Assembly (NCBI GenBank): GCA_964495575.1 | Contig: CAZBVS010000001.1 | Span: forward strand, 1-61,046 | Source of the DNA: an uncultured Candidatus Saccharibacteria bacterium | GTDB lineage: Bacteria > Patescibacteriota > Minisyncoccia > UBA6257 > GWB1-50-10 | Reading direction: 5' to 3' | Length of the DNA: 61,046 nt | In this document: positions 799 to 59,810 of the stretch, in pieces | Layout: each line of letters opens with the position of its first letter | Numbering within the stretch: position 1 is the first letter of the stretch | The notes under the pieces: generated by a model | Told to the model about the DNA's origin: nothing | The model's input: only the letters and a program-made list of their open reading frames with translations | Databases searched by the model: none | Position numbers and translations under genes: made by a program

Positions 799-1842
799 TT
801 ATTGGCACGTATTTAATCCATCCAGATCAGCATATTTCCAACTATCCGTATGTATGTCAGTTTTCCAGGCATAAGGAACACATTTTACTCCATCATCCCC
901 TCCCGGATTTCCAGGGTCACCATTCATAGGGTAATATGGTGCTTTGTAATAAACACCCCCATTCTGGATTGTTATTTCATCCCATTCATCCCATTCGTCT
1001 TCACAGGTGTTACAAACAGGCACACTAATTGTTTCTTTTGTAACTCCCTCACAAATAACTTGACCTTCCGCAGTGCAACTGGGATTAATTCCTTCTGGAC
1101 AATTTACTACTATATTATCTGCTTGAGTTCCGCAATCATGAACCATTGTTCCTGTTCGGTTGTGTTTTACACACTTTGGGTCCATATTTTCTTTTATTGT
1201 TTGATTTTCTTCATTATAGCAATAAGGTTGAGTTTCTTCTCCTTCTCCCACAACAAACTTTTCTCCATTTACCGGACAATTAGACACAGTTTCTTCCGAA
1301 CAAACATTTGATTCGACACAACAACTCCACTCCCCTTCCACATTTTGTTCCGGGTTTTCTCCTTCTTCACAAGGCTCAAGGTTTGGGTATTGAGCACAGG
1401 ATGCGCCTGTTATATTAGTACTACCCTTTTCAAAACTTGAAACCCCTTTTATTTTCTCCCCATCCTGAGTTGCATACTGAGGGTTACTTAGCTTAGTTAA
1501 CTGAGGGTTCACCGTATTTAATATTACATAAGCCCCCAACAAAAGAACCAAACCGGAAATAGCGGAGACGATAATATCTTTTCCTTTATTTTTTTTATTT
1601 ATTGCTCCAGAAACAGCGTACATTATTCCTCCAATTACAATCACAAGAACTGCAGCTATACCCCCCAACACAATTGCCGTCTTGTAAAATTTATTAATTG
1701 TTCCTGAAATATCGTTCCCTGAAAGATTTTCATAACCAGTGATTTTTATAGGTTCATTACCAACGTCAGCCGCGTTTACCACAGCAAACATTACAAAGAA
1801 AAACAAAATTATAAATAACAGTGTAGATATTTTTTTAATCAT
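799..1842 (-). CDS. VirB2/TrbC-like T4SS pilin module fused to a large Cys-rich, acidic extracellular domain
   Basis: Signal peptide (...FAVVNA), then two hydrophobic helices split by a basic loop (GGIAAVLVIVIGGIMYAVSGAINKKNKGKDIIVSAISGLVLLLGAYVILNTV). This pattern matches the three small pilin-like ORFs at 56947-58191. About 220 further residues contain about 16 Cys. Overlaps the upstream gene by 8 nt. Confidence 0.65.
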   Translation of the reverse strand: MIKKISTLLFIILFFFVMFAVVNAADVGNEPIKITGYENLSGNDISGTINKFYKTAIVLGGIAAVLVIVIGGIMYAVSGAINKKNKGKDIIVSAISGLVLLLGAYVILNTVNPQLTKLSNPQYATQDGEKIKGVSSFEKGSTNITGASCAQYPNLEPCEEGENPEQNVEGEWSCCVESNVCSEETVSNCPVNGEKFVVGEGEETQPYCYNEENQTIKENMDPKCVKHNRTGTMVHDCGTQADNIVVNCPEGINPSCTAEGQVICEGVTKETISVPVCNTCEDEWDEWDEITIQNGGVYYKAPYYPMNGDPGNPGGDDGVKCVPYAWKTDIHTDSWKYADLDGLNTCQ

Positions 1843-2548: not shown

Positions 2549-2923
2549 TTAACCATTCTTTTCTTCGTTTTTTTCTTCATCTTCTTCATCTTCTTCATCC
2601 TCATCTTCTTTTTCAGAATCTATATCTATTTCCATATTATGTATTACTACTTCTATTATAAACGAAGTTGTAACAGTGGGTATAATTGGTAAAAAGTTTG
2701 ATATCTGTTTCATTATCTGTCTTTTTAAACCCCAAGGTGTTTTTTCTCCCCCCTTTTTACCCAACCACCAGCTTGTTACAAAGCTTGATACGGATTGTAG
2801 TGGGGTTGCTAATAAATATCCCAACCCAGTCATATCAAGAAGTGCTGCCACCCCGTCTACGCTTAACCACAACAACACACCAATTACTATCTCAGAGGCG
2901 CTAAACTTTTTATATTCACTCAT
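2549..2923 (-). CDS. small membrane protein with poly-acidic C-terminal tail (T4SS-like operon)
   Basis: Hydrophobic segments (IVIGVLLWLSV..., LPIIPTVTTSFIIEVVI) followed by DSEKEDEDEEDEEDEEKNEEKNG. Start overlaps the virB4 stop by 8 nt. Confidence 0.55.
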   Translation of the reverse strand: MSEYKKFSASEIVIGVLLWLSVDGVAALLDMTGLGYLLATPLQSVSSFVTSWWLGKKGGEKTPWGLKRQIMKQISNFLPIIPTVTTSFIIEVVIHNMEIDIDSEKEDEDEEDEEDEEKNEEKNG

Positions 2924-4664
2924 TTTTTCGAAGTTCTAATAACTGCTCTGGGTCGGTTGTTATAATCTTATCCTCTGTGTAAGACGGAATTATCTTTATT
3001 GCCACGTGCTTTAATCCTACAAAGAACAATCCTTCTCCCACCTCCGCCTCCATCAAAAACTGTCTCTCGCTCCTCGTAAGATCAAATGTGTCCGCCAACA
3101 CTTTAATACTTGAAGGAGATTGTTTCATAAGAAGCTGCAGAGCGGAGTTAGTAACAATAGGTTTTCCATACTTTGAATCCATAAAATCTTCAACGTTTTG
3201 AGTTATAGTTGTGAGTCCTAAGTAATATTTCCTGGCTCTTTTAGCTAATCTAAACAAGAATGAGGCGCTATCTTCATATTCCATCATCCACCAAGCTTCA
3301 TCTATAATCAATAATCTTCTTTTTAGATTTGCTCTAATAAGACTCCATACAAAATTCAAAACTATATACATTGCAATAGGCCTCAACTCTTCTTCCAAGT
3401 CTCTTATTGAAAACACAATAAACCTATTTGTCATATCTACATCTGTAGGAGAGTTTGTAAAGCCTGAATAAGAACCACTTACATATTTTTCAAGTCTTTG
3501 AGCAAGTTTACTCCCTCCCTCAGTGTTATCTAATACTGTTTGAAAATCTTCTAATATAGGTGGATCAATATCTTTTTTACCGAAGTTTTCTGCGGTAATA
3601 TCCCGAGCAGCGTAAGTTTCAATAAGAGCTCTATCAATTAATGATTCTTCTTCAGGTTCAATATCACCTAACATTAACTTAATTAATCCAGTTAAATTTA
3701 GAATATGTGATTTAAATACATTAGCCGGATCTTCATCTTCTGGAATTACTGGTATATCAAAAGGATTTATATTATGAGGTGAGGTTAGTGATATTTTAAA
3801 GAAACTACCCCCTACAGCATCAGCTAGCGATTGATATTCTTCCTCCGGGTCTATTACCATTACATCCGTGCCCATCATCAATGTTCTTAATATCTCTAGC
3901 TTAGTAGCGTATGATTTTCCAGCTCCAGACTTAGCAAACACAACCGAGTTAGCATTTTCTAAATCAAAACGATCAAATATTACCAAACCGTTATTATGTA
4001 AATTAACTCCGTACATAATCCCTTCGTCTGAGGTTAGATCAGGTGAAACAAAAGGGAATAAAGAAGATGTTGGACCCGTATTTAAAGGCGTGTGAATCTT
4101 TAATTTATCTTCCCCTAACGGAAGAGTTGTTTTGAACCCTTCCACCTGCCTAAACAAGGCAGGTTTTATATATACCAACTTTGATTCAAGGGTTGAGGTA
4201 ATATCATTTTCAAGAGTGTTCAACTTCTCAATATCAGAGCCATAGATTGTTACATATACTCCAACTTTAAACATTTTTTCTGTTCCTTGCTGAAGAGTAT
4301 TTCTTAGGTTTTCAATATCACGATAAGCTGTTTCTAACTTTGGATTACTTACCAATCCCTTCTCCTCTTCTTCAGATATCTGAGCTTGAATTTCACCCAC
4401 CTTCTTTCTTAATTTTTTCAACGTAGTGGCCGTATCCATAGGATGAATGAATATTGATATATCCATCATCTCAGCCATATTAATAATTGGTGAAAACCAT
4501 CCTGTTGATAGATATCGGGGGTAAGTATAAACAAAGAATGTTTTTACATAATAATTATCAAGCTTTAAATAATTAGAGTTCTCTTTCATTCCAGCAGGAG
4601 CCACAATGTTAGCAATGTTTTCTTCTGATGGATTATATGATTTTGGAATTTTTATTTTAGACAT
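2916..4664 (-). CDS. virB4: VirB4/TrbE-family type IV secretion ATPase
   Basis: Walker A AKSGAGKSYATK, Walker B LLIIDEAWWMM, and the N-terminal motif YLKLDNYYVKTFFVYTYPRYLSTGWFSP typical of Gram-positive-type VirB4 proteins. Confidence 0.85.
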   Translation of the reverse strand: MSKIKIPKSYNPSEENIANIVAPAGMKENSNYLKLDNYYVKTFFVYTYPRYLSTGWFSPIINMAEMMDISIFIHPMDTATTLKKLRKKVGEIQAQISEEEEKGLVSNPKLETAYRDIENLRNTLQQGTEKMFKVGVYVTIYGSDIEKLNTLENDITSTLESKLVYIKPALFRQVEGFKTTLPLGEDKLKIHTPLNTGPTSSLFPFVSPDLTSDEGIMYGVNLHNNGLVIFDRFDLENANSVVFAKSGAGKSYATKLEILRTLMMGTDVMVIDPEEEYQSLADAVGGSFFKISLTSPHNINPFDIPVIPEDEDPANVFKSHILNLTGLIKLMLGDIEPEEESLIDRALIETYAARDITAENFGKKDIDPPILEDFQTVLDNTEGGSKLAQRLEKYVSGSYSGFTNSPTDVDMTNRFIVFSIRDLEEELRPIAMYIVLNFVWSLIRANLKRRLLIIDEAWWMMEYEDSASFLFRLAKRARKYYLGLTTITQNVEDFMDSKYGKPIVTNSALQLLMKQSPSSIKVLADTFDLTRSERQFLMEAEVGEGLFFVGLKHVAIKIIPSYTEDKIITTDPEQLLELRKNE

Positions 4665-5343: not shown

Positions 5344-5850
5344 TTATTCTGAATAATCAACCCTCTTTGCTTTCTCCACTTCTCCTGTTAGATGTCTCAC
5401 CGTTTGGTAACGTTCTTGCTGGTCATTTTTTTCTTTATTTTTCTTTAGAAAAGGAATATTTCCGGTAGTTATATTTCTAACCGCTGATTTTATCTTTCCT
5501 TGCAACCCCATATTTTTTCTAACCGCCTTTATTTTTTCTACCGAAGAAGTGTCCAAGGTTGTAGTTTCAATATCCCTTTTCCAAACGTATTTTTTTGGTT
5601 TTTGCCAGAAATTAAGAGCGTGTAGTATTACTTTTGGTAATGGTTGTCCGTTAATTTTTACAAACGCCAAGCTCACTCCCAAACCTCCCGCAAAAATTAG
5701 TATTAAAAATGAGAAAAGAGGAGGAAGCGTATAAAAAGCAAGCACGCTTAATCCTCCAGCCCCCGCAATATACAAAAACTGAGTCAAAGTTAAAGGACCG
5801 ATTATTTTTGCTTTTTTGTCTATAAATTGTGGTACCTGAAACTGAGCCAT
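5344..5850 (-). CDS. PrgI-family (VirB3-like) T4SS membrane protein
   Basis: MAQFQVPQFIDKKAKIIGPLTLTQFLYIAGAGGLSVLAFY... followed by a second hydrophobic helix, the pattern of PrgI/VirB3 analogues. Located upstream of virB4, as in Gram-positive T4SS loci. Confidence 0.6.
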   Translation of the reverse strand: MAQFQVPQFIDKKAKIIGPLTLTQFLYIAGAGGLSVLAFYTLPPLFSFLILIFAGGLGVSLAFVKINGQPLPKVILHALNFWQKPKKYVWKRDIETTTLDTSSVEKIKAVRKNMGLQGKIKSAVRNITTGNIPFLKKNKEKNDQQERYQTVRHLTGEVEKAKRVDYSE

Positions 5851-6768: not shown

Positions 6769-8748
6769 CTATTTATCTTTAGTTTCCCCTTCTTTGTCTT
6801 TACCACTTTTTTCTTCAGAAGATCCCGACTTGTCCTCTCCAGAGGACCCCTCTTCCGATCCTTCTTTATAATATGTTCCTCCACCACCTTCAAAGTTAGC
6901 GATTACATTCTTAAACCTCTTTAGCCCTTTTTCATCTCCCAATGTTGTAAGAGCTGCTTTGTATTCTGCTTCGAAATTATCTCTTCCTTTGGAGTCTAGC
7001 TTAGGCTCAATGCTGGACACAAGACCTTTATTTGTTTTAGCTATAGCTTTAGCAATCATTTGTGACGCTTCTTCTAATTTATCCTTTCCAATGCCTAACT
7101 TTTCCTTGCCGCTGAATATATCTTTGAGGGGTATGTCCTTCAAATCTTTTTTAAGTAATTTTCCGTAGAATTTTTCAGCCTCTTCATAAAATGTATCCGT
7201 ATCATCATTTTTTAACGCCTCCATCATTTCTAGTGTCATACCCAACTGTTTCTCAATCTTTTTGAAGGCTCCCTTTTCTCCATAATTCTCAAACAATCTT
7301 TTGTTATCCTCGGTAAGATGTTCTTTAGCATTAATTTTATTGATCTTTCCGTCTTTAGACAGACTTTTTAGAAGCTCTTTCTTCTCGGGTCCGGAAGCTC
7401 CTGGTAATTTGGCCAACTTTCTTTCTGTGCTCCAGCCTTTCATTTTCTTTTGGTACTCACTTGCCACCCCTTTCTTACCCTTGTCTTCAAGTGCGGTTAG
7501 CTGTCCCGCCACCCATGAAGCCGCTTTTCTACTAAACTTACCCGTTCGATTACCAGCCATCTCCCTTGCTTTACCAGCCAATGATTTATCACTTTCCTTA
7601 CCTTTCCTCCTTACTGGATAAGTCACAGCCCTCATAGCGTTTCTCTTAGCAAAGCTTGATGCCTTGCCCTTTGCCCAGCCCTTTGCCCAGCCTCCTGCAG
7701 ATTTAGCGATTCCAATTGCTCCTTTTGCTCCGTTGATTCCCATCTTGTCCGCGGCGTATAATCCGGCGAACATTAAAGCTGCAAGGACAATCATTTGAAT
7801 TCCCTGGTTTAATATTGCTCCTAAAGCAGCGTTTGAACTTGCAAAGTTAGCAGCGGCTGAATTAGCAAAATCTGCGTTTTTTATATTCTCTGCTCCCACT
7901 AACGTGAGGTAAATAAAGAATGACACTGCCGGAGCAAAGAAGGTCCATTTCAAAAAACTTTGCCACCAGTTTTGAAACTGGCTTTGTAGTTGGGGGATTA
8001 CCCATGCCAGCCATACTATCGGAGCAAGAACAAGCAAGAAAGTTAATACAACATAGCGAGCTAACAGCATAAAGGCTAAAGCCCCGAACACAATGGTTGT
8101 TAATCCGGTGAGTACTATGGTAAATATTATGTTTGTGACTCCTATAAGCAACGCGGAGCCCACCCCAATGCTCCCTTGGTTGTCTGGATCTACAGCAGGT
8201 ACTTCATTATCACTTGTTCCAATAACAAGTTTTTGAGGATTAAAAGCTCCCGCTATTGCTCCTGAAATTTGATACCCTCCGTTGCCTGGGTTTAAGAAGA
8301 ATTTAGTTAACGTATTTGAGAAACCGATTATGGGTGTAGCAATAGCCAAGCTAAAGTTAACAATTAAAGCCGCCGCAATAAGTTTAGGTAATAGTTTCTT
8401 CACCCCATACTGTTTGAACTGTACTATTGTGGCAAAACCTATAATGATTATTGCCAACACAAAACCCAAGTTTGCTAAATCACGAGTTATTTTCCAACCT
8501 TCTGAAATTAAGGTATTTGAATCATTTAAATTGTTTATATTATATTGCAGCATTACATCTGCTAAACTAGCCATCCAGTTTAGCAATGTACCTATAAAGA
8601 ACCTAAATATCTGAGCTATTACGTTTGTTATGGTAGAAGCAATATTTGCCGCCAAACCTGCGTTAGCAACTAACGGCAATGAAAACACTAATAAAGATAT
8701 TCCTAGTATCTTTAAAAGTTTTTTTCTTTTTTTAATAAAACTTTTCAT
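6769..8748 (-). CDS. TrbL/VirB6-like polytopic T4SS channel protein with long hydrophilic C-terminal domain
   Basis: Signal-like N-terminus, at least 6 long hydrophobic segments across residues about 20-340, then a roughly 300-aa K/E-rich soluble tail. Size, topology and position match VirB6/TrbL components. Confidence 0.6.
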   Translation of the reverse strand: MKSFIKKRKKLLKILGISLLVFSLPLVANAGLAANIASTITNVIAQIFRFFIGTLLNWMASLADVMLQYNINNLNDSNTLISEGWKITRDLANLGFVLAIIIIGFATIVQFKQYGVKKLLPKLIAAALIVNFSLAIATPIIGFSNTLTKFFLNPGNGGYQISGAIAGAFNPQKLVIGTSDNEVPAVDPDNQGSIGVGSALLIGVTNIIFTIVLTGLTTIVFGALAFMLLARYVVLTFLLVLAPIVWLAWVIPQLQSQFQNWWQSFLKWTFFAPAVSFFIYLTLVGAENIKNADFANSAAANFASSNAALGAILNQGIQMIVLAALMFAGLYAADKMGINGAKGAIGIAKSAGGWAKGWAKGKASSFAKRNAMRAVTYPVRRKGKESDKSLAGKAREMAGNRTGKFSRKAASWVAGQLTALEDKGKKGVASEYQKKMKGWSTERKLAKLPGASGPEKKELLKSLSKDGKINKINAKEHLTEDNKRLFENYGEKGAFKKIEKQLGMTLEMMEALKNDDTDTFYEEAEKFYGKLLKKDLKDIPLKDIFSGKEKLGIGKDKLEEASQMIAKAIAKTNKGLVSSIEPKLDSKGRDNFEAEYKAALTTLGDEKGLKRFKNVIANFEGGGGTYYKEGSEEGSSGEDKSGSSEEKSGKDKEGETKDK

Positions 8749-8757
8749 TATTTGTTC

Positions 8758-10518
8758 CTAATCATTTAATAATCCGTTACAACTTGATAATTTTAAATCT
8801 ATAGTCTCTTCCCTTTCTTCTACCCGAGCTTTTATTGTTTCAACATCCGAAGATATATTTCTTACCTCTTCTATCAAATCATAGAAATCACTTTGATATT
8901 TTTGTAATCTAAATGACTCTCCACTTTCTATAGTGGAGGTAACGTGTGAAACGTCGTAATCGTACCTGTTATCTATTTCTACTAATACTGAATTCCAGTC
9001 ATTCATATATAAATCGATAGAGTTAAATTTATTCCTAATCAAGGCTTTATCACTCTCTATGTTACTAAGGTATAACTCGGCCTTTTCTAATTTACTTTCC
9101 GCAGCAATTATTTCTTCTGAAGAAGCTTCCCCATCATTTTCTAAGCTCTCTAAAACCTCCTCTCTACATGATATCAATCCTTCTGTGGTAGTGGTCATAG
9201 AAAACGCTTCTTCGTTAACCTCTTTTGCTTCATGGAGGGTAGTGCTGGCAGAGGTTAGACTGATGCTGTCATTGCTATAATTTGCATGTTTAGTTTCTAG
9301 CTCACTCCGTAATTCTTGAAGATTTTCTACTTTTTGGTCTACAAAATCTTCTGTAGAGGTTGTGTTTATTAAATCCCTGTTTCTTTCAAAGTCATCAATT
9401 GCCCCCTCTAATTTTTCTGTTTGTTCCTCCTTAGCCATCTTATCTTTCAAGGCACCCTTTACTTCATCTGCAGCATTAGCAGCAGATTTTGCTGCATAAC
9501 AAGCAGCTCTTTCTCCTCCTTCTAGCTCACTACACTTTGCACTTTTATCCCCACTGGTTAGGTAGGTTAATCCATTTACTGTCTCTCTTGTTAACCTATT
9601 TATCCCTGCATTTATGATGGCGGCAATATAAGAACCGACCCCTTCTGTATTAAGTAAGGCATCTATATCAGATCCGAGAGCTTTAGTTGTAATTGATTTA
9701 GAAATTTGACTTGGGGTTACAATCTCAGTATTAGAACATTTCCAGTCTGATCCCAGTGGTGAATCCTCTCTTCCGTTCCATGAGTAACCATCAGGTGTTT
9801 CTGTGTAATTAAACTCTTCATGACCGGAAGTCACAGAAAAACCTTGATTATAAGTTTCATTTCCTGATGCTACCGCTCCATCATTTTTAGCAACCCATTC
9901 CGTACAACGTTTTGAGTTTAAGAAGCCTCCCGAATTTGAAACCTCTAGCTTACTTACGGTCTCTTTCTCTTCCTGTTTATTCATTACCTCTTGCTGAGTT
10001 AAAAATTTTATTCCCTGAGGGTTGTTTTGAGGTTTTAAGCTTTCTTGATAAGCTATCCACCCACCGTCTTGAAAGTTATCACCGAAAGCTTCTATATTTT
10101 CTACAATATCATCAAGAGTACACTGGACTCTCTCTCTAAAAACAGGCTGTTGCATATCAAACTTTAATTGAAATCTTAGGTCTTCATAACACAACTCTGA
10201 AGCTCCTAACTCTATAGCGGTATCTCCCACTGCTGCCTGAAACGAGTCTTCTAAAACACCGTCGAAGTTTTTAATAAATTTTGGGTCTCCATTGCCTTGA
10301 ATATACTCTATAATTCTATTGGTAGCCATGCTTAATAAGCGGTGTTTTAATGTCTGTAAAATAGTTTGAAGTACATTATCTACAATCCACGTACCTACTT
10401 CAGCTAGATCAATATTGAGATCAACTATCCCTAAAACAGCGTGAGCTCTTAGTGGATAAACCATTCCACTAAAAAGTATTAAAACTAAAAATAAAATTGA
10501 TATATTGGTTTTAAACAT
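8758..10518 (-). CDS. secreted hypothetical protein with Cys-containing N-domain and acidic coiled-coil C-terminal half
   Basis: Signal peptide MFKTNISILFLVLILFSGMVYPLRAHA. The C-terminal half is heptad-like and E/S/L-rich. Overlaps the upstream gene by 1 nt. Confidence 0.6.
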   Translation of the reverse strand: MFKTNISILFLVLILFSGMVYPLRAHAVLGIVDLNIDLAEVGTWIVDNVLQTILQTLKHRLLSMATNRIIEYIQGNGDPKFIKNFDGVLEDSFQAAVGDTAIELGASELCYEDLRFQLKFDMQQPVFRERVQCTLDDIVENIEAFGDNFQDGGWIAYQESLKPQNNPQGIKFLTQQEVMNKQEEKETVSKLEVSNSGGFLNSKRCTEWVAKNDGAVASGNETYNQGFSVTSGHEEFNYTETPDGYSWNGREDSPLGSDWKCSNTEIVTPSQISKSITTKALGSDIDALLNTEGVGSYIAAIINAGINRLTRETVNGLTYLTSGDKSAKCSELEGGERAACYAAKSAANAADEVKGALKDKMAKEEQTEKLEGAIDDFERNRDLINTTSTEDFVDQKVENLQELRSELETKHANYSNDSISLTSASTTLHEAKEVNEEAFSMTTTTEGLISCREEVLESLENDGEASSEEIIAAESKLEKAELYLSNIESDKALIRNKFNSIDLYMNDWNSVLVEIDNRYDYDVSHVTSTIESGESFRLQKYQSDFYDLIEEVRNISSDVETIKARVEEREETIDLKLSSCNGLLND

Positions 10519-11321
10519 TAAGTCTGTACATTATTTTTTAATTCCTCATATCTTTCGTTGATAATAGAGTGTAATTTACCACTTTCCTGAAGTATTATAG
10601 GTAAGTCTTGTATAGCTAGGTAAGCTTTCAAGGGATCATCCTCTCTATTTTTCATTGTTTTGTACATAGTCAATTTTTTTTGCCAAAGATTTAACATTTG
10701 AAGATGGTAGCTTGCCCAGTTTTCTGGAACCTCTATTTTTAATAAATCATCTATATGCTGGGGGACTGTATTAATAAATTTATCTAGTATTTCAGAATTA
10801 TTATCTTCTAGAAAACCTCTTAAAGCAGAAACTGAATTTTCGTTTTTTAATTCTTCAAAATTATTCCATAGAGTTTGATCTAGTTCTTCTATATATTCTA
10901 TTTCTCTTTCATCTGAAGTATTATCAACAACTTTTATATCCTTTTCTTTAAACTGAGGGTAATCAACCGTCTTATCTATATTTTCCAACCCTTCGATAGC
11001 GTTTTCTTGAGACTCAATTCCTCCACCCTCATCAACACTTTCTAATAATTTTATTGCATAAGAATCTACAAACCCCTTTGTTAAATTATCATTATCTTCA
11101 TCCCCTTCTTCGTTCTGGTCGTCTGTGTTTTTTTCAGGTAACCTTAAAAAGGAGCCATCATTTCCCTGCTTATAGCTGAGACTGGCATTTTGATCCTCCG
11201 GGTTAAAATTTTTATCCGGATCACCACTTTTTTTACTCTGATTATCTGATAATAAACCAACACTAATTACCACACCCAATAATAAAATTATTAGACCAAG
11301 TGTTTTTCTTGTGTTTAACAT
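10518..11321 (-). CDS. membrane-anchored hypothetical protein; first gene of the T4SS-like operon
   Basis: N-terminal anchor LGLIILLLGVVISVGLL followed by an acidic soluble domain. Preceded by an AT-rich divergent intergenic region. Confidence 0.55.
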   Translation of the reverse strand: MLNTRKTLGLIILLLGVVISVGLLSDNQSKKSGDPDKNFNPEDQNASLSYKQGNDGSFLRLPEKNTDDQNEEGDEDNDNLTKGFVDSYAIKLLESVDEGGGIESQENAIEGLENIDKTVDYPQFKEKDIKVVDNTSDEREIEYIEELDQTLWNNFEELKNENSVSALRGFLEDNNSEILDKFINTVPQHIDDLLKIEVPENWASYHLQMLNLWQKKLTMYKTMKNREDDPLKAYLAIQDLPIILQESGKLHSIINERYEELKNNVQT

Positions 11322-11389: not shown

Positions 11390-12031
11390 ATGAAGGCTTT
11401 AAATAAAATAGTGAGCTCAAAAACAGGGTTAATTTTATTAACCATTTTTTTAACTATTTTCAGTTCTATAAAAATTTATCCTGATAGCTTAATATTATCT
11501 AACATATTTTCAACCTTGTTAGCCCTTCTATTCTTTTTATTTGTTCCTGTTTTAATAATCAAAAAGGTGCTTAAAAAAGATTTATTAAGTTTTGGCTTTA
11601 ATTTTCCTAAAAAAACAAAAAAAGCCATTTTTTTGATTTTAATTTTCTTTTTAATATTCATCCCTATTCTTTTTTACTTAAGTAATCAGCTTAATTTTCA
11701 ATCTTATTATCTCAACCAACGAGGATTAAGTGCTGACAACTTTCTTATCTTAGGTGTTATTTTATCAGCAATATACTTTTTTTCTGAAGAATTTTTGTTT
11801 AGAGGCTTTCTTTTCTTCTTTTTATATAAAAAAATAGGCCCCCATACTTTTTGGGTGTTAAGCTTATTATTTGCCTTTCTGCATATAACCAAACCTATTC
11901 CTGAAATAATCGTTTCATTTTTTATAAGTATTACTTTGTGTTATTTATCATATAAAACCAAATCATTTCTACCGGCTTTTATCCTCCATTTTCTAATGGC
12001 TGTATTTACAAACTTTCTAATTCTTTTTTAA
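11390..12031 (+). CDS. CPBP-family (CAAX/Abi) intramembrane glutamic endopeptidase
   Basis: Polytopic protein with the motifs SEEFLFRGFLF (EExxxR), FAFLH and ILHFLMAVFTN. Confidence 0.75.
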   Translation: MKALNKIVSSKTGLILLTIFLTIFSSIKIYPDSLILSNIFSTLLALLFFLFVPVLIIKKVLKKDLLSFGFNFPKKTKKAIFLILIFFLIFIPILFYLSNQLNFQSYYLNQRGLSADNFLILGVILSAIYFFSEEFLFRGFLFFFLYKKIGPHTFWVLSLLFAFLHITKPIPEIIVSFFISITLCYLSYKTKSFLPAFILHFLMAVFTNFLILF

Positions 12032-12770
12032 TTTTTTTAATATCTCCAACATCAAGTCGCTGAGGCCTTATTTTTTTTGAGGCTCCTATTCTCTCTAAAA
12101 TTTGAGAGATTTTATCTTTATCTACCCCCAAACTAATATTTAAATTGTTCAAAACTGTTTTCCGCGGATGCTTAAAGATTACTCTCATGGTCTTATAGTA
12201 ACCGTCATCAACTGTATCTTTAAAAGGAATAATCTCTATTACCGCACTATCAACCTTAGGAACAGGCTTGAAACATTTTTTAGGGATGTAATCAACAATA
12301 TTAATTTTTCCCCAGACCTGAACACTAGCCGCGAGCCTATTCATCTTAGGTGGTCTAGAGGTAACTCTTTGAGCTACCTCTTTTTGAATAGTTAAAACTA
12401 TTTTTTCAGGTTTATTTTTTAACCCGCCTAAAACTCTAAATAGTTGACCGGTTATGTAATAAGGGATGTTTCCTATCACCTTGTACTCTCCTATTCTATC
12501 TGTAAGATTGGGCAAAATCTTTAATACATCCCCTTCCTTTATTTTTACATCCCCTTTAAAATCCTCTTCTAATTTTTTTGCTAGTTTTTTATCTTTCTCT
12601 ATCCCCACCAACTCAATACTTTCATCAACTGATATTAATTCCTTAGTCAAAGCCCCTTTTCCGGGTCCAATCTCAATAACGAAACCACCTTCAGATATCT
12701 CCAAGGCTTTTATAATAATCTCAACTTTATTTTTATCCTTTAAAAAATGTTGTCCTAAATATTTGCTCAT
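12006..12770 (-). CDS. rsmA: 16S rRNA (adenine1518/1519-N6)-dimethyltransferase RsmA/KsgA
   Basis: LGQHFLKDKNKVEIIIKAL...VIEIGPGKGALTKEL SAM-binding motif and NIPYYITG. Confidence 0.9.
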   Translation of the reverse strand: MSKYLGQHFLKDKNKVEIIIKALEISEGGFVIEIGPGKGALTKELISVDESIELVGIEKDKKLAKKLEEDFKGDVKIKEGDVLKILPNLTDRIGEYKVIGNIPYYITGQLFRVLGGLKNKPEKIVLTIQKEVAQRVTSRPPKMNRLAASVQVWGKINIVDYIPKKCFKPVPKVDSAVIEIIPFKDTVDDGYYKTMRVIFKHPRKTVLNNLNISLGVDKDKISQILERIGASKKIRPQRLDVGDIKKIKKELESL

Positions 12771-52125: not shown

Positions 52126-52698
52126 ATGATAATAACTTATCAAGACGACAATTATTTCAAGCTTCAATCAGGGGACGACACTATATTAGTAGATCCGACA
52201 GATCAGAGATCTTTTCGAGGAGCAAACATAGTTTTGAACACTAAAAAACCTGCTGTTACCGAAGAACCTTCCTCAGAAGAAGAGATATTTTGGGTAGATC
52301 ACAGCGGTGAATATGAGATAGGAGGAACCAGGATTAACGGATGGCAATCCTCTTCAAACGATGAAGAAAAAACAATTTACCGTGTAGATTTTGAAGGATT
52401 TCGGGTAGTTATCTTCGGGTTTTTAGAAGAAGTGCCTGAAGAAGAGCTTCAAGAACATTTAACAGACGTAGACATTGTAATATGTCCTGCCGGAGGAGAC
52501 AGCCTTGTTAAACCTAACAAAATAGCCAAGTTTATTCGTCAGATTGAACCTGGCCTTATTATCCCTTCCTTCTCTAAGGATCTGAAAAGCTTTTTAAACG
52601 AGTTTAACACCAAAGATTGCAAGGAAGAAGAAAAAATTGTTTTAAGGAAGAACGATGTTAAGAAGGGGGAGATGGAAGTACGTTGTTTAAAAAGTTAA
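52126..52698 (+). CDS. hypothetical protein (faint resemblance to MBL-fold UPF0173-type proteins; no His motif)
   Basis: The N-terminus MIITYQDDNYFKLQSGDDTILVDP resembles MBL-fold starts, but HxHxDH is absent. It follows a TATAAT at 52021 and a leader of about 100 nt containing the hairpin gatgaca-gca-tgtcatc. Confidence 0.5.
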   Translation: MIITYQDDNYFKLQSGDDTILVDPTDQRSFRGANIVLNTKKPAVTEEPSSEEEIFWVDHSGEYEIGGTRINGWQSSSNDEEKTIYRVDFEGFRVVIFGFLEEVPEEELQEHLTDVDIVICPAGGDSLVKPNKIAKFIRQIEPGLIIPSFSKDLKSFLNEFNTKDCKEEEKIVLRKNDVKKGEMEVRCLKS

Positions 52699-52699
52699 G

Positions 52700-53119
52700 A
52701 TGTCCTTTGTTGAAAAAACAAAAAATATAATAAAAGGAATAACTAGAAAGATCAGAAAAATTAGACGCTCTGATCAGAAAACAAAAAGAAACTGGTTGAT
52801 TCTAAGCACCGCTGTAGCCACGATCTTAATAATAGGGTTATGGGTCTGGTATATAAATTTTACTGTCTCTGGTATCTCTGGTATAAACAAAGAGGCTAAT
52901 GATTCTGAGGTTGGTAACATTGAATCAGAACCAAATAAATCTGGAGTTATTAATATCTTTGTTAGAGGTTTCGTAGTTATTAAAGATGCCGTAGCTCAAA
53001 GATTTAAAGGAATGTTTACGGAAGTAAATTCTTTAATTAAAAGAACAAAAGATAGTTTTAATAATGTAAAAGAATACACTCCGGAGGCTTCAAGTAGTAT
53101 TCCTTTTGAAACACAATAA
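52700..53119 (+). CDS. membrane-anchored hypothetical protein
   Basis: Basic N-terminus and transmembrane helix [21 protein letters not shown]. Tightly packed between the neighbouring genes. Confidence 0.5.
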
Positions 53120-53121
53120 AC

Positions 53122-55605
53122 ATGTCTAAGAAAAAAAAGAAAAAATCAAATAAAAAAGAAGACAAGAAGCCTGAAAGTGAGATAAGAGTTTCTAAAATCA
53201 CAGAAGAGCTTCAAGAATCATACATTGATTACGCAATGTCTGTCATTGTCTCTCGAGCCATCCCTGATATCCGGGATGGTCTCAAACCTGTCCAAAGAAG
53301 AATTCTTTGGGCAATGTGGGATGATAACTTAACTTATAAATCTAAGTTTAGAAAATCAGCTAATGTTGTTGGTCAGGTTCTTGGACGTTATCACCCTCAT
53401 GGAGACTCCGCCGTGTACGACGCTATGGCTCGAATGGCTCAGGATTTCTCTCTTCGGTACCCTCTAATAGATGGGCAAGGTAACTGGGGATCCATTGACG
53501 GAGACAGCCAGGCTGCTATGCGATATACCGAGTGTCGATTAACAAAGATATCCGGTGAACTTTTAAAAAACATTGAGAAGGATACCGTTGATTGGCAGGC
53601 TAACTACGATAACACTAGGCAGGAACCCAAGTTTCTGCCGGCTAAGCTCCCTGGTTTGCTGTTAAACGGAACTATGGGGATCGCTGTAGGTATGGCCACT
53701 AGTATTCCTCCCCATAACCTTTCTGAGATAATTGATGCTACCAAACATTTAATTAAAAACCCTGATGCAACTGTAAAAGAGTTAATGCGGTATCTTCCAG
53801 GGCCTGATTTTCCAACCGGAGGAGAGATATATGAAGCTGAAGAGCTAGAAAAAGCGTATTCTACAGGCCGAGGTTCTGTAGTTATTCGCGCTGTTACCGA
53901 TGTCGAAAAAAGAAAGAAGCACATGACGATCGTTGTAGATGAAATTCCTTACCAAGTTAACAAAGCCCGGTTGATTGAAAAAATAGCCAACCTAGTTAAG
54001 GACAAAAAGATTCAGGGGATAAAAGATGTTCGTGATGAATCAGGCCGAGATGGGATGAGGATTGCTATTGAGTTGAAACAAAGCGTAAATCCTCAAAGAA
54101 TCCTTAATCAACTTTATAAAAACACCCGACTTCAAACCAAGTTCCACTTTAATATGGTGGCTTTAGTTGATGGAATCCAGCCTCAGGTAGTTTCTTTAAA
54201 AGATATTCTCTCAGAATATATTAAGCATCGAAAGAAAACTATCACCCGAAGATTAAAGTACCGACTTAAAAAAGCAGAGGACAGAGCCCACATATTAGAA
54301 GGATTGGTGGTAGCGTTGGATGATATAGATGCTGTTATAAAAACAATTAAAAAATCTGAGAACAGGAAAAAGGCTCATAAAAACTTAGTTAAAAAATTTG
54401 ATCTTTCTAAGGTTCAAGCCGATGCTATTTTAAACATGAAGCTTCAGAGCCTTGCTTCCTTGGAAGCTAAGAAGATTAAAGATGAACTAGAAGAAAAGAA
54501 AGAACTTATCAAAGAGCTTAAAACCATCCTTAAAAGCGATCAGAAAATTCTTGATATTATTATTGAAGAGCTTGATGAAATTAAAGAAGAGTATGGTGAC
54601 GAAAGGAAAACTAAAATGGTTGAAGGTTCTCTCAAAGAATTTAAAAAAGAAGACTTTATTCCTCAGAAAGAAGCTGTCATTCTCCTTACTAATGACGGAT
54701 ACATTAAAAGAATGACTCCTAAATCCTTCCGTCTTCAAGGCAGAGGAGGCCGTGGTCTTAAGGGTCTAAACCTCAAAGAAGAAGATAAGGTATCTAAACT
54801 ATTAGTAGCAAACACGCATGATGATATTCTTTTCTTCACCGACAGTGGGAATGTTTTCAAAACCCGGGTATATGAAATACCAAAATCATCCCGAACCGCC
54901 AAAGGTAAATTGGTCCACACCTTTCTTGGTCTCTCAGATGATGATAAAATCACCGCTGTCCTAGCGTATAACAGTGAAGAAAAGGAAGATGATGAGAAAT
55001 ACTTTGTCATGGGTACCGAGAACGGAATGGTAAAGAAGACCAAAATATCAGAGTTTGAAAACGTAAGAAGTACCGGAATAATTGCAGTTGGTCTTAAGGA
55101 TGATGATACTCTTCGCTGGGTAAAACGTTCTACCGGAGATGACGATTTCTTGTTTGTAACTAAAAACGGCCAGTCAATCAGATTTAGCGAAGATGAGGTT
55201 AGAGCAATGGGTCGTACCGCTTCTGGAGTAAAGGCGGTTGATCTGAAGAATAAGGATAAGGTTACTGGTTTTGTAGTAATTGACGAAGGAAAAAACAATA
55301 AAGATCAAAAGCTATTGGTAATTACAGAAAACGGATATGGTAAGAAAACTCCTATTAAAGAATATAAAACTCAGCGTCGTGGTGGAAAAGGAGTGGCTAC
55401 TGCTAAAACAACTAAGAAAACCGGTTCTTTGGCTGCCGCAAGCTTAATCGATAAAGAAGTGGATGACGTTATAGCTTTCACTGAAAAAGGTTTAGTTATT
55501 AAAACAGAGATAAAAGATATTCGCACCAGTGGACGCTCTACTCAAGGGGTGAAAATAATGAACGTAAATGACGATGATTCCTTGGTAGGCATCTTTTGTT
55601 CATAA
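53122..55605 (+). CDS. gyrA: DNA gyrase subunit A with K-rich N-terminal extension
   Basis: [14 protein letters not shown], active-site region [11 protein letters not shown]-terminal beta-pinwheel repeats. The N-terminus is [18 protein letters not shown]. Confidence 0.95.
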
Positions 55606-55648
55606 CTTTATTTCGTTTTCTTTCGAAATTAGTTTAGAATAATTATAT

Positions 55649-56944
55649 ATGGATAAGAATAAAGTTATTATACTTGCTATACTTGGAAGTTTAGCAGCTT
55701 TAGTTTTGATTTTTGTAGTTGGGTTCTTTTTAAACAGAGGACCAGGTGAAGACTCTATTTATAATACTCAGGCTCAACTTGATGTCTGGGCTGTTTCTGA
55801 TAGAAAGGCAGCTTATGAAAAAGCTATCTCCGAGTTCAACAAAACTTACCCTAACATTACAGTTAACTACCGGCGTTTTGAAAATACCAATGAATACGAA
55901 GAAACCCTCCTTAATTCTTTAGCGGCTGGAGAAGGGCCAGATATTTTTGTCATTAAAAACAGTGATATCTTAAGGAAGGCTAACAAAACATTTCCTGTCC
56001 CGGAATCTCAGTATTCCTTATCAAATTTAAGGAATGATTTTCCTGAGGTAGTTGAACAAGACTTTTATTTCAACAACAAGATTTACGCTCTTCCAGCCTC
56101 TGTTGATACTCTTGCCATGATATATAACAAGAGTCTCTTTAACGAAGCTGCTATAGTTTATCCTGCTAAGAACTGGGAAGAGTTTAAAACTCAGACTAAA
56201 AAACTTACTAAATTCAATGATCAATCTGGCGATGTATCCCGAGCCGGAGCTGCTATAGGAGGTGCAGATAATATTAAGTATTCTTCTGATCTCCTCTCCC
56301 TTCTTATGATGCAGTCTGGGGCAGACATGGTAAGTGATAATTATGACTCAGCTACCTTTAGCTCCGAACCGGGTAGAGAAGCATTAGACTTTTATACTCA
56401 ATTTTCAAACCCTAACGCAGATTTATATACCTGGGATAGCTATCTTTCTCAAGATTTTGAATCGTTTGCCCGGGAAAACAACGCGGTTGTCTTCGGTTAT
56501 TCCACCGATTTAAAAGATTTAAAGGATAGAAATGTGTTTTTAGAGGTGGGCGTTGCCAAAGTACCTCAGATAAAAGAAAACAAAGAAATAGCTATCGCCG
56601 ATTACTTCGGTTACGCAGTTTCTCGACAAACTCGATATCCCACAATAGCTTGGGATTTTGTTAAGGTTCTAACCCTCGACTCTTCTGCTATAAGAAGTTA
56701 TCTTGATAACACGAAAAGACCTCCCGCCCTTAAATCTTTAATCCAGGAGTATAAAAATGATCAGGAACTTGGAGTTTTTGCAAAACAAGCTTTAATTGCC
56801 GAGTCCTGGAGGAAGCCTGATTTTGAGAAGACAGATAAGATTTTTGATCAGATGATAAAGGCAGTGGGAGATGAAGGAAAGGCCTCATACAGGATTTTAA
56901 GAAACGCAGAGGATGAAGTTTCTAATTTATTAAAATCTTTATAA
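55649..56944 (+). CDS. ABC-transporter substrate-binding protein, family 1 (sugar type)
   Basis: N-terminal anchor, size about 430 aa; patterns LDVWAVSD...FNKTYPNITVNY and PDIFVI are typical of SBP_bac_1. Confidence 0.6.
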   Translation: MDKNKVIILAILGSLAALVLIFVVGFFLNRGPGEDSIYNTQAQLDVWAVSDRKAAYEKAISEFNKTYPNITVNYRRFENTNEYEETLLNSLAAGEGPDIFVIKNSDILRKANKTFPVPESQYSLSNLRNDFPEVVEQDFYFNNKIYALPASVDTLAMIYNKSLFNEAAIVYPAKNWEEFKTQTKKLTKFNDQSGDVSRAGAAIGGADNIKYSSDLLSLLMMQSGADMVSDNYDSATFSSEPGREALDFYTQFSNPNADLYTWDSYLSQDFESFARENNAVVFGYSTDLKDLKDRNVFLEVGVAKVPQIKENKEIAIADYFGYAVSRQTRYPTIAWDFVKVLTLDSSAIRSYLDNTKRPPALKSLIQEYKNDQELGVFAKQALIAESWRKPDFEKTDKIFDQMIKAVGDEGKASYRILRNAEDEVSNLLKSL

Positions 56945-56946
56945 CC

Positions 56947-57378
56947 ATGAATAATGTATTAAATATTTTAATAAGCGCTTTTGTTCTTTTATTAGTTGGC
57001 TTTTTTGCTTTTTCTCCGCTAGCGTTTGCTGCTCAGAAAGGTGCCCCCGATAGCGGCTCTATAATCTGGGAGGGGGTAACCTGTAATCAGCAAGGAGAAG
57101 ACCCTTGTGATTTTTGTGACATGATTAAGGTAGTCTCTAATATTGTTAATTTTCTAACCCGGTTAGCATATATAGTGGCCGCCGCTGTAATTGTAGCCGG
57201 GGGAGTGATGATAATGGTAAGTGGGGGTAATGAAAAAAGATTCTCTAAAGGTAAGAGTTTAATTACCAACGCTGTTATAGGTATTGTTATTACCTTAACC
57301 GCTTGGATTATTGTAAATACCCTTTTCCACATCATAACCGGTGATGAACAGTTTATTTGGTCCGAAATAGTGTGTTAG
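56947..57378 (+). CDS. VirB2/TrbC-like T4SS pilin paralogue with Cys-containing N-terminal segment
   Basis: Signal peptide ...PLAFAA, Cys segment CNQQGEDPCDFCDM, then helix-basic loop-helix AAAVIVAGGVMIMVSGGNEKRFSKGKSLITNAVIGIVITLTAWIIV. The protein ends in Cys. Confidence 0.65.
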   Translation: MNNVLNILISAFVLLLVGFFAFSPLAFAAQKGAPDSGSIIWEGVTCNQQGEDPCDFCDMIKVVSNIVNFLTRLAYIVAAAVIVAGGVMIMVSGGNEKRFSKGKSLITNAVIGIVITLTAWIIVNTLFHIITGDEQFIWSEIVC

Positions 57379-57387
57379 AATAAACAT

Positions 57388-57759
57388 ATGAAGAAATTAA
57401 CCTTATTTTTAATAACCTTCTTAGCCTTTACCTTTATCCTTGGAGTGCCTCATGTCCTAGCACAACAAGAAGGCTCCCCTACGGTAGGGTTAACTAACCC
57501 TCTTGAGGAATCAGGGGCTAACACGATAGGGGATGTTTTAACCAGAATTATTGATGGTCTTCAGGTTATCGCTATCCCAATAGCCGGTATTATGGTGTTA
57601 GTAGGTGGTTTTCAGATCCTTTTTGCTGCTGGAGACCCCGAGAAATTTAAGAAAGGTAAAAAAACAATCCTATATACAGTAATAGGTTATGCTATAATAT
57701 TAGTAGCTAACGGAATGGATAAATTAATTAAGGATATTTTGACACATTCCGTAGAATAA
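57388..57759 (+). CDS. VirB2/TrbC-like T4SS pilin paralogue
   Basis: Signal peptide ...PHVLAQ, then AIPIAGIMVLVGGFQILFAAGDPEKFKKGKKTILYTVIGYAIILVANG. Confidence 0.65.
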   Translation: MKKLTLFLITFLAFTFILGVPHVLAQQEGSPTVGLTNPLEESGANTIGDVLTRIIDGLQVIAIPIAGIMVLVGGFQILFAAGDPEKFKKGKKTILYTVIGYAIILVANGMDKLIKDILTHSVE

Positions 57760-57822
57760 TTAAAAGTATTTTAATAAAAGGTCGTTTGAAAATATAGTCG
57801 AATTAACAAATTAAAATTAACA

Positions 57823-58191
57823 ATGAAAGATAAACTATATAAAGCGTTAGTATTTATTCCTATGATTGCTTTGTTGGCTACTCCAGTTTTAGGACTAGCA
57901 GCGGATCAACAACCTGGTTCAAAAATAACTTCTTTGACTCAAGTTGAGCAGTTGCTAGGTGGAATACTTGGTTGGCTTACCAGCTTTTTGTATATTGCCG
58001 CAGCTATAATGGTTATTATCGCAGGTTTCACCTATCTTGGTTCTCAAGGTGACGAAGAAAAAGTTAAAAAAGCCAAGAATATGTTAATTTACGCTGTGAT
58101 TGCTGTCGCATTAGGTCTAGTGGCTGGTGGAATTGGTTCATTAGTAGATAATATATTAAGTTCCGGCACGACCCCTAATGTAGCTCCGTAA
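57823..58191 (+). CDS. VirB2/TrbC-like T4SS pilin paralogue
   Basis: Signal peptide ...PVLGLAA, then YIAAAIMVIIAGFTYLGSQGDEEKVKKAKNMLIYAVIAVALGLVAGG. Confidence 0.65.
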   Translation: MKDKLYKALVFIPMIALLATPVLGLAADQQPGSKITSLTQVEQLLGGILGWLTSFLYIAAAIMVIIAGFTYLGSQGDEEKVKKAKNMLIYAVIAVALGLVAGGIGSLVDNILSSGTTPNVAP

Positions 58192-58212: not shown

Positions 58213-58243
58213 AACCCCATCTCATAATGAGATGGGGTTTTTG
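58213..58243. terminator. bidirectional intrinsic terminator
   Basis: 11-bp stem aaccccatctc/gagatggggtt with loop ataat, followed by a T-run. Confidence 0.8.
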
Positions 58244-58252
58244 ATATTAATA

Positions 58253-58696
58253 CTACCACGTTCTAACAAGAAGGGTGTCCTTACTAGAAAGTGATTTTAA
58301 CTTAAAAACAAATTCCTCTGGAGGTCTTCTGTCTGCAACTCTAAAAGTATCTACCGTGCCATCTTTATACTTCGTAAGATGTGATTTTCCGTTGAGTGAC
58401 TGTATTCTATGCTTCATTCCATAAGTGTTAGCATCAATCCACCCACTCCACTTTTTATCGGTAACTTCTAGATAAAATCTGGAGTTCCGGTTTAGCTTCC
58501 GGTAGCCAAAATGATTGTATTTAATAAGCTTCACTTCTGGTTTTTTATTGAATCTCTCTTCAATCACTCCAGAAGCTTTATCTACAACCTTTTTTTTAGC
58601 AGATTGGAATCCACCGAAAAAGCTGAGGAGGACTATAATGAGCACAGTAAAAATCATTATTTTAACTGCCTTTTTTCTGTCAATTAGCTTACTCAT
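58253..58696 (-). CDS. membrane-anchored beta-rich protein (possible NfeD-like partner of the upstream SPFH-like gene)
   Basis: Anchor IMIFTVLIIVLLSFFGGF. Overlaps the upstream gene by 8 nt. The NfeD analogy rests on gene context only. Confidence 0.45.
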   Translation of the reverse strand: MSKLIDRKKAVKIMIFTVLIIVLLSFFGGFQSAKKKVVDKASGVIEERFNKKPEVKLIKYNHFGYRKLNRNSRFYLEVTDKKWSGWIDANTYGMKHRIQSLNGKSHLTKYKDGTVDTFRVADRRPPEEFVFKLKSLSSKDTLLVRTW

Positions 58697-59810
58697 TCTT
58701 ACCTCCTTCCATGATTAACGGGGTTCCCTTACCGACGATGGAAATGTTGCCATTTCCTTGGTCCACATCTTTCTCAGATGAGTTAAGAGCCTGCTGAGCA
58801 TCTACACCCAACTTTTTATATTTCATAGCTCTCTCCATCTTCTTGATGTGTACTAGATCAGAGGCTTTAAGGCGGTCCTTTGCTCTCTGTTCTTCTTCAA
58901 GGGCTTCCTGGGTTTGCTTATCGAAGCTTACTGTTCCTAAGGTGAAGTTATGGATGTCTACTCCATAATACTGTTCTTCGTCCGAATCAGATTCCAAATC
59001 TCCCTGGCTTCTCAAAAGAGTTCCAATCAGATTTGAAAAGTGAGAATAAAAATGAATTCTCTTTTCAAAAGGAATCTCATCTTTCAGCTCTTTCTCAGTG
59101 TTAACAGAAAAATTATCTACTTCAGTATAAGTCTCTTTATCATTCCAGAAATCATTTTCAAGCCACACCTCTTTCAAGTTTTCATATCCATCCATATCCT
59201 CAAACCATTTTTCAGCATTAACATGAACGGGTCTCTCCATTCTCAGGATAGAATTGATATAATTCTCAATTCCTCTTCTTTCGTCTCTGAAGATAGTCCA
59301 GTAGAAGCCGCCAGCGATTCTACCAATCTCAGAATCAATCTTATCGTTCAGTCCCTCTTGCATCATCTTCTTCGTGATGTATGCATATCGGGGAACATTT
59401 GAATTACCCTCTTTAATTTCAGGATTGGGGGCCCACCTTGTTTCTGAATCAATCTTTATCTTTCTGTTATCCAGAGAGATAAATTGAAACTTAATATCCA
59501 TAGGGTCCGGTTTTAGGCTGTATGTGAAATCCTTATCAAGACTATCAATCAAGGGGATCCCTATATTCCAACCTTCCTGAAAATAGTTTGTGGGTTTTCC
59601 TAATCTTAACGGGATGGAAAAGTGTAATGGTTTAACCTTGTGAAAGGCATCCATTGCAAGTGCTCCAACCATTACAGTAGCAAGTATCAAGGCTATTCCT
59701 GCTTCTATGAAGAAGCTGGAAATAACGAACACTACTAGCCAACTAGCTATAACAACAATCAAAGAAGGAAGTATAAACGTTTTTAAGTATTTCTTTTTCC
59801 TTTCTTTCAT
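58689..59810 (-). CDS. SPFH/band-7-like membrane protein (tentative)
   Basis: Two N-terminal transmembrane helices, a core PLRLGKPTNYFQEGWNIGIPLIDSL...MDIKFQFISLDNRKIKIDSETRW reminiscent of SPFH domains, and a coiled-coil C-terminus. Confidence 0.45.
   Translation of the reverse strand: MKERKKKYLKTFILPSLIVVIASWLVVFVISSFFIEAGIALILATVMVGALAMDAFHKVKPLHFSIPLRLGKPTNYFQEGWNIGIPLIDSLDKDFTYSLKPDPMDIKFQFISLDNRKIKIDSETRWAPNPEIKEGNSNVPRYAYITKKMMQEGLNDKIDSEIGRIAGGFYWTIFRDERRGIENYINSILRMERPVHVNAEKWFEDMDGYENLKEVWLENDFWNDKETYTEVDNFSVNTEKELKDEIPFEKRIHFYSHFSNLIGTLLRSQGDLESDSDEEQYYGVDIHNFTLGTVSFDKQTQEALEEEQRAKDRLKASDLVHIKKMERAMKYKKLGVDAQQALNSSEKDVDQGNGNISIVGKGTPLIMEGGKNE

Follow-up and report, generated by a model that had tools for sequence, protein, structure and literature searches.

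Three position-fixed classes of predicted type IV secretion pilins behind an orphan binding-protein gene in a patescibacterium

The window analyzed here, a contig of 61,046 nucleotides (CAZBVS010000001.1 of assembly GCA_964495575.1; contig C1 in our numbering), carries at positions 56947-58191 three tandem open reading frames (ORFs), PIL1, PIL2 and PIL3, that very likely code for pilin-family proteins of a type IV secretion system (T4SS). These three genes represent ancient paralogue classes, each fixed in its position, and not recent variants of one another. The gene just upstream, which codes for a membrane-anchored, sugar-type solute-binding protein, comes first in the pilin cassette, an arrangement that is conserved, and is an orphan without an ATP-binding cassette (ABC) permease. 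The genome to which the window belongs comprises 565 kb in 37 contigs and is 95% complete. It was compared with pilin loci from 20 other genomes of its order, which span 13 families (order-level loci), with 39-40 class-level loci and 40 loci of other classes, and with sets of 151 genomes of the class and 251 of the phylum.

Three pilin classes in a fixed order

The original prediction had described three co-oriented ORFs of 122-143 aa, built on one plan, as VirB2-like pilin paralogues, and this was borne out to the nucleotide. All are on the forward strand: PIL1 (class 1, 143 aa) at 56947-57378, PIL2 (class 2, 123 aa) at 57388-57759 and PIL3 (class 3, 122 aa) at 57823-58191, the last two without Cys. 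PIL1 starts 2 nt after the stop codon of the binding-protein gene (...TAAccATG) and, again as predicted, its region holds CNQQGEDPCDFCDM and a C-terminal Cys; 9 nt separate PIL1 from PIL2, and 63 nt separate PIL2 from PIL3. In the shared layout, a signal peptide is followed by a variable segment and then by two helices with a basic loop between them. The signal peptides end at AxA-like sites (AFA/A, VLA/Q and LAA/D), and the segment that follows, up to helix 1, is entirely different among the three proteins. A loop motif, G-[DN]-x-EK-x-x-K-[GA]-K, had been put forward as common to the three ORFs and to the N-terminal module of a 347-aa fusion protein encoded at 799-1842. The motif is exact in PIL2 and PIL3, but the loops of PIL1 (GNEKRFSKGK) and of the fusion protein (GAINKKNKGK) are each one residue off, and two Lys and one Gly are invariant across the four modules.

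All three ORFs and the N-terminus of the fusion protein exceeded the gathering score of the T4SS_pilin family PF18895 (26.6 bits), with 33.8, 48.0 and 33.5 bits for PIL1, PIL2 and PIL3 and 32.2 bits for residues 44-110 of the fusion protein; PF18895 was also confirmed at the DNA level. PIL2 (35.3 bits) and PIL3 (29.1 bits) were above the cut-off of the TrbC/VirB2 family PF04956 (27.9 bits), whereas PIL1 (20.4 bits) and the fusion protein (16.6 bits) fell below it. The NCBIfam model NF045849 (Mbov_0395 pilin-like conjugal transfer protein; cut-off 40 bits) was passed by PIL3 (41.4 bits), with PIL1 and PIL2 below the cut-off. Identity within the array is 23-29%. The similarity is nevertheless well beyond chance: BLASTP linked PIL1 to PIL2 (8e-12), PIL2 to PIL3 (1e-10) and PIL1 to the fusion protein (5e-10; 44% identity over 59 aa), and hhalign matched a profile of classes 2 and 3 to the fusion protein (E 2.4e-5). 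Because PF18895, BLASTP and hhalign support all four modules, the proteins do not appear to belong to an unrelated family of small membrane proteins; the module alignment and the profile search thus uphold both the family assignment and the similarity to the N-terminus encoded at 799-1842. In AlphaFold models, PIL1 (predicted local distance difference test score, pLDDT, 75; helices 56-91 and 96-131) and PIL2 (pLDDT 79.6, core >90; helices 47-78 and 84-120) are both predicted to fold as the expected alpha-hairpin.

Each gene of the triplet has its own same-position orthologue across the 20 order-level loci and in most class-level loci. The binding-protein gene is followed by pilins in 20/20 order-level loci, most of which show the order PIL1, PIL2 and then at least one PIL3, with best hits that respect position. 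In a maximum-likelihood tree of 91 pilin cores, the class-3 and class-1 clades received support of 100/97 and 99/90, respectively, and the pilins were grouped by array position across genera, not by genome. Position labels changed 13 times on this tree, as compared with 40.8 times when shuffled, and none of 200 shuffles gave a value as low. The window genome has one copy of each class. Elsewhere, class 3 has been amplified by lineage-specific tandem duplication; same-genome duplicates belong to this class, with one exception (a class-1 pair in locus L020), and there are none in this genome. Of the two roles envisaged at the outset, antigenic variants are not what the positional orthologues and the near-restriction of same-genome duplicates to class 3 (the pair in L020 excepted) indicate for the triplet, whereas a set of major and minor pilins fits the three ancient classes in fixed order. 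Class 3 is the candidate for the major subunit and most likely makes up the bulk, since it has no Cys, has a conserved upstream element of its own (see below) and alone has been amplified elsewhere. For classes 1 and 2, a role as low-copy, specialised subunits is likely.

The whole genome has four pilin genes, the triplet and the fusion gene at 799-1842 (reverse strand). The fusion pilin joins a class-1-type N-terminal module to a C-terminal domain of 230 aa with 16 Cys, falls inside the class-1 clade (99/90), next to the orthologue from one relative (G010), and is encoded beside the secretion-system core. The core, also on the reverse strand, includes genes for a VirB4-type ATPase (2916-4664; PF19044 TraG P-loop, 91.5 bits, with AAA_10 and DUF87) and for a PrgI/VirB3-like protein of the kind found in monoderm-type systems (5344-5850; PF12666 PrgI, 41.1 bits). 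A 659-aa polytopic membrane protein (6769-8748, reverse strand), with no Pfam match, is a putative VirB6-like channel component by its position and hydrophobic profile. From the last gene of the core block (10518-11321, assigned by position, no Pfam match) to PIL1 we measured 45.6 kb on the same contig, in agreement with the predicted detachment of about 46 kb; the VirB4 and PrgI genes and the fusion gene lie 46-55 kb from the array.

Other observations concern the core and its surroundings. Matches to the VirD4-type coupling-protein family PF02534 are on contigs other than that of the core (G000:C9:8950-10440 and G000:C2:42161-44518). One other-class genome (L100, G285:C10:9800-21300) encodes a homologue of the 659-aa protein two genes upstream from its binding-protein gene. 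A gene for an Rce1-like CPBP intramembrane protease (11390-12031, forward strand) adjoins the secretion block divergently and is followed by ksgA (12006-12770), as the literature reports for virB4 neighbourhoods. We considered whether CAAX-type processing might tie this protease to PIL1 and rejected it, as PIL1 does not end in a CAAX box. No cyclase or tip-protein family was found in the Pfam and NCBIfam scans of the proteins scanned.

In 383 Patescibacteria assemblies, Quinonero-Coronel et al. (2025; PMC12102498) described 441 arrays, each with 2-11 VirB2-like genes, for which identity averaged 25%; they found a pilin gene near virB4 in 1135 of 1948 assemblies. Their definition of an array (2-11 genes of low identity, in tandem or with one gene between) covers the triplet, with its three genes and its spacers of 9 and 63 nt. 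Because tandem VirB2-like arrays in Patescibacteria have been published (PMC12102498, PMC10633639), the triplet and its detachment from the core are an already published kind of array and not a new one; the original prediction had missed these reports from the same phylum. Southlakia epibionticum requires its pilin array (Wang et al., 2023; PMC10633639), genes for T4SS pilins rank with the most highly expressed secreted-protein genes in cultured Paceibacteria (PMC10936435), and the function of the secretion system and array of Patescibacteria has been termed completely unknown (PMC11665869). The window array resembles the described ones (PMC12102498; Southlakia SEML1_0014-0019; the 'Sec-secreted array' of TM7x) in its PF18895 matches, small tandem genes and identity of about 25%, as well as in its chromosomal location, in a monoderm-type system with VirB4 and PrgI, and in that pilins are not always beside virB4. 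In Southlakia the array forms part of the cluster, whereas the window array is 46 kb distant from the core; unlike the described Patescibacteria arrays, the latter has an orphan sugar-type binding protein in front, three fixed classes and a four-Cys signature in class 1. In the literature searched we found no mention of any one of these features, the 46-kb detachment, the leading binding protein or the three classes with the four-Cys signature, nor of a link between binding protein and pilins.

The orphan binding protein and its gene neighbourhood

The gene at 55649-56944 (forward strand) codes for a 431-aa protein of binding-protein family 1 with an N-terminal membrane anchor, which matches SBP_bac_8 (PF13416; 91.7 bits) and SBP_bac_1 (PF01547; 90.2 bits), both well over the cut-offs, and is the only PF13416 match in the genome. 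Its nearest solved relatives are carbohydrate-binding proteins (5ci5, 3e-31; the trehalose/maltose-binding protein 1eu8). The BPD_transp_1 permease family (PF00528) had no match in the genome, at its 95% completeness; it was absent from 29 of 31 relatives (present in 2) and from 119 of 151 class genomes (present in 32), and where such permeases occur in the class they are never at the binding-protein locus. Since the genome lacks a BPD_transp_1 permease, the designation of the product as an ABC binding protein, and the proposed connection to solute uptake, are unsupported in the classical sense.

The hinted connection between this gene and the pilins is, however, supported as a genetic link by their adjacency at order-level, class-level and other-class loci. 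A pilin start was found ≤300 nt downstream of the binding-protein gene in 19/20, 34/39 and 23/40 of these loci, respectively, with a median gap of 2-10 nt, and the pair persists as the upstream neighbour changes from gyrA to a methyltransferase gene or galU. A single-copy orthologue of the binding protein is present in 141/151 class genomes and in 204/251 phylum genomes, and is kept in genomes of 0.5-0.8 Mb; pilins are present in 151/151 class genomes.

Upstream of the binding-protein gene lie, in the same orientation, a gene coding for an MBL-fold protein, one for a membrane protein of 139 aa, and gyrA (52126-55605, forward strand; gyrA at 53122-55605), with gaps of 1, 2 and 43 nt. The 43-nt spacer between gyrA and the binding-protein gene (55606-55648) contains TAGAAT 8 nt before the ATG, with a poor -35 region, and no Shine-Dalgarno-like sequence. 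The block formed by the MBL-fold gene, the 139-aa gene, gyrA, the binding-protein gene and the pilins is kept in most of the 20 order-level loci and is shared with GCA_001003655.1 (Jorgensenbacteria GW2011) and GCA_042218035.1; a PIL1 homologue at 90% identity carries the label Candidatus Paceibacterota bacterium. The tight packing of the MBL-fold, 139-aa and gyrA genes with the cassette is conserved synteny only.

The upstream neighbour differs in other groups. In class-level loci of other orders, a gene for a class I S-adenosylmethionine (SAM)-dependent methyltransferase of about 180 aa stands between gyrA and the binding-protein gene (L022:7669-8208; equivalents in 35/40 loci); it is not found at that place in the window's own order. 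We considered a TraF/LepB-like pilin peptidase as the product of this gene and rejected it in view of the methyltransferase assignment. In other classes, where gyrA is usually absent from the locus, the gene for GalU (UTP-glucose-1-phosphate uridylyltransferase) stands immediately before the binding-protein gene and the array (L061:3166-4032 and 20 more loci); this gene, of about 290 codons, was also considered as an ABC permease, a reading that was rejected once it proved to be galU. An Hsp20 gene is often ahead of galU in other-class loci, and in Southlakia an Hsp20 gene (SEML1_0020) abuts the pilin array.

On the downstream side, a strong, bidirectional intrinsic terminator at 58213-58239, with a 12-bp stem containing 6 G-C pairs and T runs on both strands, closes both the pilin unit and a convergent unit. 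The latter consists of an SPFH/Band_7 gene and a small overlapping partner (58253-59810, reverse strand), which are convergent neighbours of the array in several relatives, including both of the public genomes named above.

The class-1 cysteines and the class-3 spacer element

PIL1 has four conserved Cys residues: C46, C54 and C57, the last two forming a C-x-x-C just before helix 1, and the C-terminal C143. Aligned class-1 orthologues have IW-x-G...C-N...C-x-x-C-D in front of helix 1 and a C-terminal W-x-x-I-x-C in common. In a survey of 301 short pilins from 100 loci, a C-x-x-C at helix 1 was present in 27, and a tail Cys accompanied it in 27/27, as against 26 of the 274 short pilins without the C-x-x-C (Fisher p 4e-24). 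Of the 51 pilins that bear the signature, 47 occupy the first position behind the binding protein. Four orthologues lack Cys57, and these also lack the terminal Cys; this joint loss suggests a bond between Cys57 and Cys143 together with a Cys46-Cys54 loop. Thus, a Cys57-Cys143 disulfide probably acts as a staple in class 1. In the VirB2 topology, which is established for the family and which we infer here, both ends of the pilin are outside the cell, and the bond would tie them to each other.

The mean number of Cys in first-position pilins is 7.9, and Cys-rich ectodomains are frequent among them, at 100-350 aa and, in outliers, about 1100 aa; of the later-position pilins, less than one quarter have at least 2 Cys. 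A DsbA-like (Thioredoxin_4) protein with an N-terminal membrane anchor (G000:C13:11480-12172) is the sole candidate for extracytoplasmic disulfide formation, and VKOR is absent from the genome.

Class 3 is set apart by an element in front of its gene. The 63-nt spacer between PIL2 and PIL3 contains AAAGGTCG (57777-57784, forward strand), 45 nt before the start codon of PIL3. It is unique in the window and invariant across a five-genome alignment, and most related loci have the 8-mer as well, 25-47 nt ahead of their first gene for a class-3 pilin. In 25/84 loci, the heptamer AAGGTCG was found upstream of the start of a pilin gene at a distance of ≤80 nt, in 16/27 cases before the third pilin; its background frequency, 146 matches in about 2.1 Mb of strand, gives an expectation of about 2 in the upstream windows. 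No Rfam family reached gathering level for AAAGGTCG. The number of promoter-like sites in the region (24) was not in excess of that in shuffled sequence (21.0 +/- 5.7). We regard AAAGGTCG as a candidate regulatory or 5'-leader element of the class-3 gene, which may be a promoter-proximal site, a leader element or a processing site.

Possible functions of the array

From these comparisons it seems probable that the triplet is a minimal three-gene pilin array of a monoderm-type T4SS in a Paceibacteria-type bacterium of the Candidate Phyla Radiation. Each precursor would be exported by Sec and cleaved after its AxA-like site, and the processed pilin would form a helical hairpin within the membrane, its basic loop facing the cytoplasm. 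The VirB4 machine would extract the pilins into a heteromeric surface filament or conduit for contact with the host cell. Class 1 may be the natural docking partner of the membrane-anchored binding protein encoded 2 nt upstream.

Known pilins offer partial parallels. Diderm TrbC/VirB2 pilins (PF04956: TrbC of RP4, VirB2 of the Ti plasmid and TrhA of the H-pilus) likewise combine a signal peptide with a pair of hydrophobic helices and a short basic loop. The TrbC, VirB2 and TrhA pilins are cyclised head to tail; the disulfide of PIL1 may give a similar closure, and the Cys57-Cys143 bond would be the counterpart of this cyclisation without a covalent backbone link. Unlike those proteins, PIL1 and the fusion protein fall below the PF04956 cut-off, the envelope is monoderm, and there is no sequence match to a solved pilin. 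The Mbov_0395 family of Mycoplasma integrative conjugative elements shares the small VirB2-like hairpin and a wall-less or monoderm system, but comprises single conjugative genes on mobile elements, whereas the set described here is chromosomal and has several genes. The archaeal Ced/Ted DNA-import pili (8dfu) are built from a VirB2-like hairpin subunit in cells without an outer membrane and provide a precedent for an importing system; the structural match to them is not significant, however, there is no sequence similarity, and of the two systems it is the archaeal one that is known for DNA import.

Several observations weigh against this account of the array. Foldseek searches of the PDB with the PIL1 and PIL2 models returned nothing at E ≤ 0.001; the highest probability, 0.84, was that of the PIL1 model with the Aeropyrum pernix conjugation pilus 8dfu, a match that is not significant (E 1.1). 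A sequence profile of 46 pilins retrieved designed coiled coils only from the PDB, and no solved conjugative pilin. Because a helical hairpin is too simple to discriminate, we take the fold searches to be uninformative rather than negative. Class 2, a coherent group that takes 14 of the 19 rank-2 pilins, has weak branch support in the tree. AAAGGTCG was considered as a promoter mark, but no -10 box stands at a fixed distance from it. Finally, we know of no Paceibacteria in which a filament has been observed and of no biochemically characterised member of PF18895.

Could the three genes be interchangeable variants of one major pilin, serving antigenic variation or adaptation to host strains? 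In Bartonella and Anaplasma, VirB2 paralogues have been proposed to play such a role, and a variant role has also been suggested for Patescibacteria arrays (PMC12102498). The identity within the triplet is low, close to the published mean for arrays, the segments from signal peptide to helix 1 differ completely among the three proteins, and class 3 duplicates in tandem within lineages of relatives. Variants of one pilin would not, however, be expected to have same-position orthologues across the order-level and most class-level loci, to be arranged by position rather than by genome in the tree, or to differ in that one class has a Cys signature that the others lack; with only one copy per class in this genome, we consider this explanation very unlikely. 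It is also unlikely, if less so, that the proteins are not filament subunits at all and that the hairpin is part of a translocation channel or an anchor that presents ectodomains, those rich in Cys and perhaps the binding protein. Monoderm-type systems are normally without pili (PMC12102498, PMC12857230), and the fold searches do not discriminate between the two possibilities. Moreover, many class-1 pilins and the protein encoded at 799-1842 carry ectodomains of 100-350 aa (with the outliers of about 1100 aa), with up to 36 Cys in the common size range, and a VirB2-type helical lattice could hardly accommodate these. On the other hand, classes 2 and 3 are short proteins with nothing to present, PIL2 and PIL3 are above the cut-off of PF04956, the bona fide conjugative pilin family, and the structural neighbour of highest probability for PIL1, at a non-significant level, is an archaeal conjugation pilus subunit.

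The adjacency of the binding protein and the pilins can be read in two ways. The binding protein, the stapled class-1 pilin and the plain pilins may form one ligand-capturing or sensing device, a suggestion that we find rather doubtful. A sugar-type receptor that lost its ABC permease would have been recruited to the T4SS pilus or conduit and docked on the class-1 pilin; either a host-derived compound would be captured for import through the secretion channel, or the host surface would be sensed to trigger the machine. Proteins of the periplasmic-binding fold that sense a ligand and have a functional tie to a T4SS without being uptake components are known from ChvE-VirA of Agrobacterium and from PrgZ/TraC of enterococcal pheromone plasmids. 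Those, however, work via either a sensor kinase or the Opp permease, and their genes do not stand before pilin genes; no such partner is evident here. Alternatively, the adjacency may be inherited gene order without function, the binding protein serving an unrecognised transporter or sensor elsewhere; we regard this as somewhat doubtful. The gyrA and MBL-fold genes are equally tightly packed without an obvious functional link. Further points speak against a functional tie: pilins are retained in all ten class genomes that lack the binding protein, in 14 of 40 other-class loci no pilins come after the binding-protein gene, and among the rows of the PMC10633639 supplement that were matched to the Southlakia array there is no family-1 binding protein. 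Mere inheritance of gene order sits less well with a pair that outlasts the changes upstream, with gaps of a few nucleotides, with the lack of a BPD_transp_1 permease here and in most relatives and class genomes (and never one near the binding protein), or with the retention of a single-copy binding protein in such small genomes.

Both the T4SS and the pilin array are essential in the only Patescibacterium with genetic tests. The window holds the whole parts list on one contig and offers concrete, testable clues: a fixed set of three subunit types, a conserved and probable Cys staple in one type, an upstream element of its own in another, and a genetic tie to a transporter-less sugar-binding protein across the whole class and beyond. 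If this tie is also functional, it would point to ligand capture or sensing at the host interface. If binding protein and pilins do form one device, this would give the essential T4SS a ligand and a direction of transport.

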